A stretch of DNA of 63,216 nucleotides, the filler included, from Stramenopiles sp. TOSAG23-6 (lineage: Eukaryota): assembly GCA_900128565.1 (NCBI GenBank). It is 16 parts of 16 records of this genome, joined end to end, with 100 filler letters (N's around TTAATTAATTAA, not from the genome) between each part and the next. Parts side by side here need not be neighbours in the genome. Positions count along the whole stretch, not along the records: positions 11,930 to 15,798 come from LT637342.1; 15 more parts are not named here. One strand, given 5' to 3'. Each line of letters begins with the position of its first letter. Within the stretch, counting starts at the first letter, position 1. Position numbers and translations under genes: made by a program. The notes under the pieces were generated by a model. The model made no database searches and had not been told where the DNA came from. It saw only the letters and a program-made list of their open reading frames with translations. Positions 13,263 to 14,121 of the stretch are shown piece after piece.

Positions 13263-13365
13263 ATGTATTTTGGAAAAATATTTCATAAAAAAAATCTAAA
13301 AAAATTTGTTAGGTACAAAATTTCGTACGAAAAAAAAATCAAATTTGAAAAAAAATAAAACATAC
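13263..13365 (-). other. GT-AT intron (103 nt) joining a kinase exon to a VPS13B-like exon (probably chimeric)
   Basis: GCAT|GTATGT...core motif...TTTTCC-AAAATACAT|TT; in frame, but the flanking exons belong to different families. Confidence 0.6.
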
Positions 13366-14121
13366 ATGCATCTTGGGCAAAACAACTTGACCCATAATCA
13401 GCAATCTTGAGCAGATGGTTGATATTATCGACCATGATATTTGATGGTTTAAAATCAAAGTGGTACATGTATTGTGAAAAAATATTTCAAAAAAACTCGT
13501 TAGGTACAAAATTTCGTATGAAAAAAAAAATAAATTTGAATTTCAAAAAATTAAAACGTACATCCCCTGGCTGTGAAGGTTATCTAATCCATTCATTATA
13601 TCCCTGAATACTTCGACAACCCAGTAAAATTCATTTGATACATTCCACATATCAAGAACGCTACTTCTAAAATCATTAGCATTTTCAGTGGATATTTTTG
13701 AGCGATGAAACCAATTATTGATGAAATTCGCAAAGTCTGGTCCTTGCACACGTTCCATAATCATCATTGGCACGGAAGAAGTTTCTTTAGCTTTAGCGAC
13801 TCCAAAATATCCAACAGTATTTTTTTCGTTACAATTTTCTCTTCTTGCATCACAGGCAAGCATATTCAATATCGCTTCATTTTCCACACTATAAATTGTG
13901 CTTAAGATGGAATCCTCATCTTTATCTCCTATCTTTGCTACTTTCACTGCAACATTTTTTCTATTTGGATTTGTTTTTTTGTCTTCAATTAGAAGTGAAC
14001 CCTTGTACACTTGACCAAAACTTCCTTCGCCTAGTGGGTTTGCTCTATATATAGTTAGCTTAGTTGCTTTACATTTTTGGAGAATACAAATAAGGAACAA
14101 TGCTGCGGTTGCTGCCTTCAT
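13366..14121 (-). CDS. Protein kinase, 5' exons (14121-13562, 13466-13366), with predicted signal peptide
   Basis: LGEGSFGQVYKG, VAVK, LHSQGMYHFDFKPSN across the junction, KIADYG. Confidence 0.85.
13467..13561 (-). other. GT-AT intron (95 nt)
   Basis: Removal restores the catalytic loop LHSQG-MYHFDFKPSN; acceptor TTTTC-ACAATACAT. Confidence 0.9.

Follow-up and report, generated by a model that had tools for sequence, protein, structure and literature searches.

The DNA analysed here (the window) is a stretch of 63,216 nucleotides (nt), filler included, from assembly GCA_900128565.1 of Stramenopiles sp. TOSAG23-6. Near-identical introns of ~100 nt, which begin with GT and appear to end with AT, break up its genes about once in every kilobase. 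The initial annotation had pointed out that AT is mirrored at both junctions within 13263-13563, and this was borne out: two minus-strand inserts of the family, at 13263-13365 and 13467-13561, divide a protein kinase gene. The window is a chain of about 16 short contigs placed end to end and not one locus. The linkers, of the form N44-TTAATTAATTAA-N44 (e.g., N44 at 11830-11873 and 11886-11929), are found at 3880-59375, roughly every 3.95 kb with a spacing that shrinks along the window. Because the window is a chain of separate contigs, features that run across a linker are artefacts. Part of the window is redundant: 7955-11829 is a second copy of the contig at 3980-7854, and another three contigs, lying between 35.6 and 47.4 kb, do not differ from one another. 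The unique sequence amounts to about 47 kb.

On the minus strand, kinase exon 1 (13562-14130) matches positions 5-116 of the Pkinase profile, the match ending at residue 187 of 189. The intron that follows it (13467-13561, 95 nt) reads GGGAT^GTACGT...CACAATACAT^GTACCAC, where ^ marks an exon-intron border; ATGTAC is repeated at both junctions and the tail also reads CAATACAT. Exon 2 (13366-13466, 101 nt) has its full codons at 13367-13465 and matches profile positions 121-149 from its residue 2. The next intron (13263-13365, 103 nt) reads GATGCAT^GTATGTTTTATTTTTTTTCAAATTTGA...CGTACGAAATTTTGTACCTAAC...GAAATATTTTTCCAAAATACAT^TTGGACC, or in shorter form GATGCAT^GTATGT...CCAAAATACAT^TTGGACC, with CAT at both junctions and the tail AAAATACAT; for this intron the frame test described below was uninformative. 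The same gene contains a further family intron at 12775-12878 (-; CGACAT^GTATGT...CACAATGCAT^TGATCC). A more diverged member, preceded by an exon end other than AT, is located at 12301-12408 (-; GAACAA^GTAAGT...CCACAATAAAT^GATG). Removal of either of these two joined the flanking frames.

The probable GT-AT intron family and its reading frames

In sense orientation a family member consists of (C/A)AT^GTAYGTTTT(A), a T-run, the branch box CRTACGAAATTTTGTACCTAAC, a run of T and A, and the 3′ box GAAATATTTTTYCAMAATACAT^, over a copy length of about 90-180 nt. The core has a longer form, TTTTCRTACGAAATTTTGTACCTAAC, and the T-run preceding it often contains CAAATTYGA. The conserved 3′ box is a T-run followed by CAMAATACAT, ending (C/A/T)AT. 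In 13 aligned copies the 5′, core and 3′ blocks were invariant, with G, T and A at +1 to +3, G at +5 and TACCTAAC in every copy and a T-run before the 3′ box. Positions +5/+6 were G/T in 12 of the 13, the remaining copy having A at +6. Many of the aligned copies also shared spacer motifs such as CAAATTYGA. Of 29 tails measured, 28 had the branch box 32-56 nt before the 3′ end, and the remaining one had it at 19 nt. The yeast-type branch consensus is TACTAAC, from which TACCTAAC differs by one added C.

The GT...AT introns had been assigned to one repeated family before, and the copy number, the frame test and three gapless junctions all agreed with this assignment. A 22-nt core gave 35 matches at ≤3 mismatches against 0.00 expected (100 shuffles), and TACCTAA gave 65 matches with recognisable common flanks in the window. 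The core of the intron in a RIO2 kinase gene (53848-54011) reached a depth of about 260-320 in one seawater DNA run while its flanks stayed at about 8, a sign of many copies. On the non-duplicated contigs GTACCTAAC matched 47 times: 36 matches were in the sense of the dominant neighbouring open reading frame (ORF), 4 were opposite and 7 ambiguous. Of the four opposite matches, two run across contig linkers and a third is a 13-nt stretch of coding sequence in an LRR ORF; among the 47, none was clearly an intergenic or antisense family copy. The core pattern had 0 matches in a viral contig collection and 0 in the JGI metagenome contig collection. All introns found in the window carry the family boxes. 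Six introns contain the branch box twice (32124-32303, 53848-54011, 57997-58178, 58928-59095, 62365-62510 and 18588-18794), and in 57997-58178 the 3′ box is doubled too. These doubled boxes are internal tandem duplications of the core and not full nested insertions.

When the sequence from GT to AT was taken out, the best frame upstream ran on into the best frame downstream in 13 of the 16 introns that were informative (p = 1.2e-4 against 1/3). By our reading of the tail data, a diverged copy at 21179 is likewise in frame after removal. At three junctions protein homology was exact to the residue. In the kinase gene, position 118 of the Pkinase profile is the last in exon 1, the codon split by the intron encodes M, residue 1 of exon 2 is position 120 and the catalytic-loop H is 121; after removal of 13467-13561 the sequence G(118)-M-Y-H(121)FDFKPSN is gapless through the HRD loop. 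In an EXS (SYG1/XPR1-like) gene, the last residue of exon C is profile position 195, and exon D begins at 196, its residue 2 being 197, again without a gap. In an MCM gene the joined sequence ...GEY^SPQQVKQCL... is gapless against the nearest homologue, P0122, and five others. At the junction in a mitochondrial-carrier gene and at EXS D^E and E^F, homology alignments run through loops of varying length.

The junction repeats permit several equivalent cuts: AT-AC, TG-CA, GT-AT and others at the kinase intron, and AT-AA, TG-AA, GT-AT, TA-TG and AC-GT at 32586-32753. GT-AT is favoured as the terminal pair because it is the sole pair permitted at all three homology junctions. An AT-AC reading, with the cut 2 nt to the left, is possible only after an exon AT and gives AT-AA at 32586-32753; it was rejected as a general rule because it is impossible at that intron and makes both ends variable. 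Excision from TA to TA, as in ciliate-type eliminated DNA, was ruled out at the kinase, EXS and MCM junctions because 6 extra bases (2 residues) would remain, yet the junctions are gapless. Of the curated 3′ ends, 30 of 32 were AT (21 CAT, 6 AAT and 3 TAT), one was TAG and one CTT.

The EXS gene holds four family introns on the plus strand. The gapless junction is that of 32586-32753 (CCACAT^GTACGT...CCAAAATAAAT^GTTTTT), and the flanking frames were joined at the other three: 32124-32303, with two branch boxes (TTACAT^GTATGT...CATAGTACAT^AACACC); 32361-32495, with a T-run and AG 30 nt before the AT end (CAGTAT^GTATGT...AAAACACAT^GTACTA); and 32835-32937 (GGACAT^GTATGT...CCAAAATTTAT^CATTTT). 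The RIO2 intron at 53848-54011 (+; GAAGAAT^GTACGT...CACAATACAT^GGGG), which has two branch boxes, joins a 433-codon to a 192-codon frame when removed. The MCM intron at 62365-62510 (-; GAATAT^GTACGT...CAAAAAACAT^TCACCT), also with two branch boxes, leaves a gapless C-terminus after splicing. A diverged member at 2011-2099 (-; GAATAT^GTACGT...CACAACACAT^GCTTCG) lies in the mitochondrial-carrier gene, with its flanking frames joined. Other ends were seen in a member at 18975-19073 (+), which ends TATAG after an exon ending CT and joins its flanking frames, in a member at 24387, which ends CTT, and in a degenerate copy near 25219, which ends ACAG and is without GT. Separately, EXS exon C contains at 32533-32554 (+) a 20/22 match to the antisense of the intron core, GTTTGGTACAAAATTTAGTACG, encoding RLVQNLVR. 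The host of this match is a conserved coding exon (EXS profile 167-195), and on the core shuffle control the match is too close for chance.

Chance is far from sufficient to explain the observation. The analysis establishes the family, the sense orientation of its copies in genes, the restoration of frame, the three homology-exact junctions and the enrichment of AT described in the next section. The pattern is U2-like except for the last base, with a GTRNGT-like 5′ site, a branch site and a pyrimidine tract present and the 3′ YAG almost always replaced by AT. The explanation that we favour, with moderate confidence, is that these are nuclear introns belonging to one proliferated, introner-like GT-AT family; the marine stramenopile that carries them is probably a MAST. 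A copy would bring a standard-looking 5′ site GTAYGTTTT, the long branch box CRTACGAAATTTTGTACCTAAC and a 3′ box ending (C/A/T)AT. We infer that a spliceosome most likely makes its cuts in the transcript at GT and behind the terminal AT; it would tolerate U for G at the last intron position, and the reading frame would thereby be restored.

The AT at the exon border

A donor scan of the non-duplicated contigs gave 72 strings of the type GT[AT][ACT]GT, 34 of them with a branch box within 260 nt; these 34 boxed donors include a few doubtful or duplicated ones. The bases before them were AT in 21 cases, TT in 5, GT in 3, CT in 3, AA in 1 and CA in 1. Among the 38 strings without a branch box, AT preceded the donor in 5. 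The background frequency of AT before GT in long ORFs is 0.109, which gives a probability of about 1e-12 for at least 21 of 34. AT also precedes 15 of 22 hand-curated complete introns (P about 3e-10). The initial annotation had counted an exon ending in AT before 17 of 22 GT-AT introns; the enrichment held in both of our own sets, and the exact list was not reproduced. At the 34 boxed donors T was conserved at −1 in 32 and A at −2 in 22, with C or A preferred at −3. The longer junction repeats reported earlier, ATG at 2011 and 53848 and ATGTAC at 13467, are all present.

The donor had also been described as close to the reverse complement of the acceptor. The donor ATGTAT(G)TTT does resemble the reverse complement of the acceptor AAAATACAT; the similarity is real, and short, the match covering ATGTAT/ATACAT. 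This likeness belongs to the consensus of the family and is therefore a single observation, not 22. The exon AU and the first four intron bases could pair with the last six intron bases. Six folded copies had z = −1.31, 0.29, −0.87, 0.23, 1.41 and −2.90, five of the six being no stabler than shuffles. Structure-driven removal of the euglenid or Amoebophrya kind is not supported, because there is no covariation at +4 and all folds but one are no stabler than those of shuffled sequences.

The near full-length similarity of the copies, spacers included, favours a mobile element, and a transposon that duplicates AT, as the initial annotation had proposed, gives a single explanation for the same dinucleotide at both junctions. 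When the copies were sorted by us into less and more diverged, exon AT was present in 11 of 13 and 10 of 18, respectively, a difference that is not significant. Non-AT exon ends occur mostly at more diverged copies, which fits decay of a duplication. What weighs against a mobile element is the weakness of its marks. The inverted ends are 4-6 nt, ATGTAT/ATACAT extending 4 nt beyond AT; the junction repeat ranges in length from 0 to 6 nt, and the base at −3 matches at both junctions in 4 of 15; donors with C at +4 are without a compensating 3′ change. A transposase, which had been proposed as a partner to be sought, did not appear: no such domain was present among the 64 ORFs scanned in the window. 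Nor was an empty site seen. Long inverted repeats (at least ~10 nt) with a target duplication of constant length, as in a cut-and-paste transposon or miniature inverted-repeat transposable element, were not seen. Neither were copies in both orientations and between genes together with an autonomous transposase, the copies in the window being almost all sense. Furthermore, since all introns found carry the boxes, these may be lineage-wide splicing signals and not the marks of one recent family.

In the main alternative, whose altered U1 the initial annotation had already proposed, the exon AT is a splice-site consensus like AG^GT that is recognised through U5/U6 contacts or a changed 5′ end of U1, and the boxes are lineage-wide signals. 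Conservation at the donors falls away from the junction (−1, then −2, then −3) as in an ordinary exon consensus, and downstream exons begin with G above expectation, as in ...AG^G. Diverged copies retain the 5′, branch and 3′ boxes, and no boxless intron was found in the window. However, many copies also have the spacers between the boxes in common, and constraint on the signals would not by itself lead to this. The model also calls for two separate changes, one in the reader of exon −1 and one in the reader of the last intron base, and the sole clear AG-ending member follows CT and not AT. We regard this explanation as unlikely. A search of the window against Rfam at gathering thresholds gave 0 matches, hence no snRNA there.

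The reading of the mirrored AT as the trace of an insertion is slightly ahead of the exon consensus. For this origin we infer that the exon AT most likely marks the arrival of a copy, which could have come about by a 2-bp AT duplication at insertion or by reverse splicing into ...AT^ sites. By either route, removal of the element and one AT would give back the original message. It is possible, and we suggest it tentatively, that essentially all nuclear introns of the lineage are one self-propagating element, which inserts at AT, duplicates it and is spliced from GT to the second AT, so that the second step of the spliceosome would routinely occur at U.

Comparison with known introns

Introners are multi-copy similar spliceosomal introns described in Micromonas, Aureococcus, fungi and dinoflagellates (PMC12130899, PMC7789003). 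As presented in these accounts, they are like the window family in their many near-identical short sense introns, placed at high density in unrelated genes, in the short direct repeat across the borders, and in that removal restores the message. The window family likewise has many similar copies at unrelated loci, which are sense and frame-restoring. It differs in that it is GT-AT and not GT-AG, with a repeat of 2 nt, inverted ends of 4-6 nt and no autonomous partner known, and in that all introns found in the window are family members. According to the cited text, introner surveys begin from annotated introns and accept only AG or AC 3′ ends (PMC12130899); because they start from annotation, a GT-AT family would be filtered out or remain unannotated.

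The introners of Amoebophrya (Farhat et al. 2021, PMC7789003) are also repeated non-GT-AG introns of a marine protist; as in the window family, direct repeats of a few nt lie over the boundaries, the ends are inverted repeats, and the cut position is ambiguous as a result. As described there, their terminal dinucleotides are inconsistent, their inverted repeats measure 8-20 nt and fold into hairpins, and no U1 was found. In contrast, the window family has an invariant GTAYGT and branch box, a 3′ end that is almost always AT, and no excess fold stability. The non-conventional introns of euglenids and hemistasiid diplonemids (PMC12621601) share with it the non-GT-AG borders, the complementary ends and a proposed origin from miniature transposons. 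In the cited description they are without conserved borders and have strong G+C-rich pairing of the ends, whereas the window family keeps GT, the branch box and the T-tract, and its ends pair over ≤6 nt without covariation. The unconserved borders and stable end pairing of the euglenid type were thus not found in the window family, its borders being conserved and the six folds being as given above.

GT-AT splicing is known as a rarity, which the initial annotation had not taken into account. In the data reported for four species, GT-AT accounts for 7 of 66 non-canonical U12-type introns and for one conserved U2-type case (Sheth et al. 2006, PMC1557818). Conserved examples are DEADC1 and SLC24A6 (U12-type) and DGCR2 (U2-type) (PMC1557818; Larue et al. 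10.1101/2020.10.12.336362). As reported, the GT-AT introns of animals and Physarum have the same terminal pair as the window family and are productively spliced, and they amount to a handful per genome, mostly U12-type with U12 motifs (PMC1557818, 10.1101/2020.10.12.336362). In the window, unlike in these organisms, GT-AT introns would make up the main class and combine a U2-like 5′ site with a branch box far from the 3′ end. What is new here is the GT-AT ends on an introner-like family; introners and rare GT-AT splicing were already known.

A second alternative is that the inserts are removed by a transformed minor (U12-like) spliceosome, which is known to accept GT-AT and AT-AN ends and to need long rigid boxes. 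The boxes of the family are indeed unusually long and invariant, and in Physarum, as described, the minor system can expand and alter its branch motif (10.1101/2020.10.12.336362). The 5′ site, however, is GTAYGT(TTT) and not the [AG]TATCC/CTTT motif, and 28 of 29 tails place the box 32-56 nt before the 3′ end, whereas 9-12 nt is the distance given for Physarum (10.1101/2020.10.12.336362). A T-rich tract before the 3′ end also speaks against it. Neither a 5′ [AG]TATCCTT-like site nor, apart from the one tail at 19 nt, a branch motif ~9-20 nt from the 3′ end, as in U12-type introns, was found, and we consider this alternative improbable.

Proposed removal at GT and AT, RNA runs and gene context

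Several results count against GT...AT removal as we have drawn it. The 3′ ends were placed at the end of the conserved 3′ box, and the placement is partly circular because this box was used; it is independent of AT only where frame or homology backs it. Three of the 16 informative introns are out of frame at the terminal AT. The introns i33294 and i55917 fit an AT 4 nt upstream (AAAT^ACAT) or an intron shorter by 1 nt, i59095 fits an AG 4 nt downstream, and the intron ending at 55782, before a GlmS-like exon, is off by 1-2 nt. In three introns a T-run with AG, at 13285, 27591 and 32465, precedes the AT end by 33, 30 and 30 nt respectively, a multiple of 3 in each case, and stands 12-14 nt past the branch box; these introns may use the AG with 10-11 extra codons, or use alternative 3′ sites. 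Between the branch box and the 3′ end AG is mildly depleted, with 9 occurrences in 1195 nt where composition predicts roughly 17.

RNA was examined with reads on 51806-55333, the RIO2 contig only, from three RNA runs and one DNA run. No contig bridging the RIO2 junction at 53848-54011 was obtained in the three RNA runs, the exons being covered only as RNA contigs of 150-300 nt, and one RNA contig, X9 (53656-53875), extends 28 nt into the intron. Because of this extension, X9 is unspliced RNA or DNA. The missing bridge is evidence neither for nor against splicing. A DNA metagenome contig at the locus carries the intron.

The mitochondrial-carrier gene shows a frame change inside an exon, between the second and third repeats (2215-2240, -), without intron-like sequence. 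Either the assembly has an indel here or the defect is real, and such an in-exon frameshift implies that some of the frame misses may be sequence errors.

Protein searches for spliced products or models from the source organism with EXS exon E gave no match. With the MCM exon they gave one foreign model only, P0122, and with RIO2 only a DNA-derived ORF and a read-through coding sequence (CDS). The public CDS (protein P0002) is identical to the RIO2 ORF at 52548-53888 (+) but for three differences: it is without YSVQNSKGEVLALKLHRLGR, inside the RIO domain, and without VIRSMEKTKTKAAASNDIQ further on, and it ends at a stop 14 codons into the GT-AT intron. Since the public CDS reads through the intron to this stop, the RIO2 intron was missed by standard prediction, and the CDS looks like a mis-prediction due to the unusual introns.

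That the inserts are not removed at GT...AT, being instead miniature transposons that disrupted genes and left pseudogenes or assembly noise, introns cut at other sites such as a nearby AG, or DNA excised in ciliate-like fashion between TA borders, agrees with the missing RNA bridge and the unspliced RNA contig, with the frame misses in 3 of 16 introns and the GlmS-like case, with the in-frame T-run and AG of three introns and with the mild depletion of AG (9 against roughly 17). It is very improbable nonetheless: it would disable a whole set of conserved essential genes (RIO2, MCM, EXS, carrier and Rrp6), the sense orientation holds for 36 of the 47 copies, the three residue-exact junctions exclude a downstream AG at their sites, and the same intron-bearing DNA is present in independent seawater metagenome runs.

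If element-derived GT-AT introns do occur throughout, this would be the first known genome with GT-AT, not GT-AG, as the standard intron. The last-intron G is among the most conserved features of eukaryotic genes, and U as the rule would offer a natural system for the study of second-step site choice and show how far a mobile intron family can push the host splicing machinery. Confirmation by RNA that AT is the regular 3′ end genome-wide would be very surprising to specialists. Gene finders that allow AG ends only fail on the GT-AT family. If this holds more widely, the numbers of genes, the completeness estimates and any reports of gene loss or pseudogenes for single-cell assemblies of this kind need re-examination. 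MAST-3 single-cell assemblies are reported, in the text cited, to have unusually few predicted genes and problems in the training of gene finders (PMC5778133); a connection of these low counts with GT-AT introns is speculation. No account of a GT-AT family was found in the literature on GT-AT in protists and on stramenopile introners. The main text of the MAST genome papers, supplements apart, is without discussion of introns, the word occurring at most twice and in the methods only.

The gene content of the window, by domain scan of ORFs, is eukaryotic. It includes the mitochondrial carrier, an Rrp6-like exonuclease, the RIO2 kinase, MCM and THOC5, together with the EXS-family membrane protein, protein kinases, and LRR and RING proteins. 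The G+C content is about 0.2-0.37, the standard genetic code yields long ORFs, and 0 tRNAs were found in the window. In a run search the stretch was also present in small DNA runs, seawater metagenomes and metatranscriptomes. The GlmS-like exon, of 44 codons at 55783-55914 (+), matches residues 392-420 of glucosamine-6-phosphate synthase (GlmS) with E about 1e-4 (a PDB match), and its neighbours are acidic low-complexity exons without recognisable GlmS similarity. At the very start of one contig the two halves of an FF domain match opposite strands (19866-20204, -; 20113-21192, +), perhaps because whole-genome amplification produced an inverted chimera. Telomere-like CCCTAA doublets, all short, occur within introns and in coding low-complexity stretches (NPNP), at 60300-60335, 33046-33058, 33158-33172, 25600-25640 (-) and 33775-33790. 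One intron with such a doublet starts GTATGTAACCCTAACCCTAATAACCCTAACCCTAA, and in the diverged intron at 21179 ACCCTAAC stands as the branch box.

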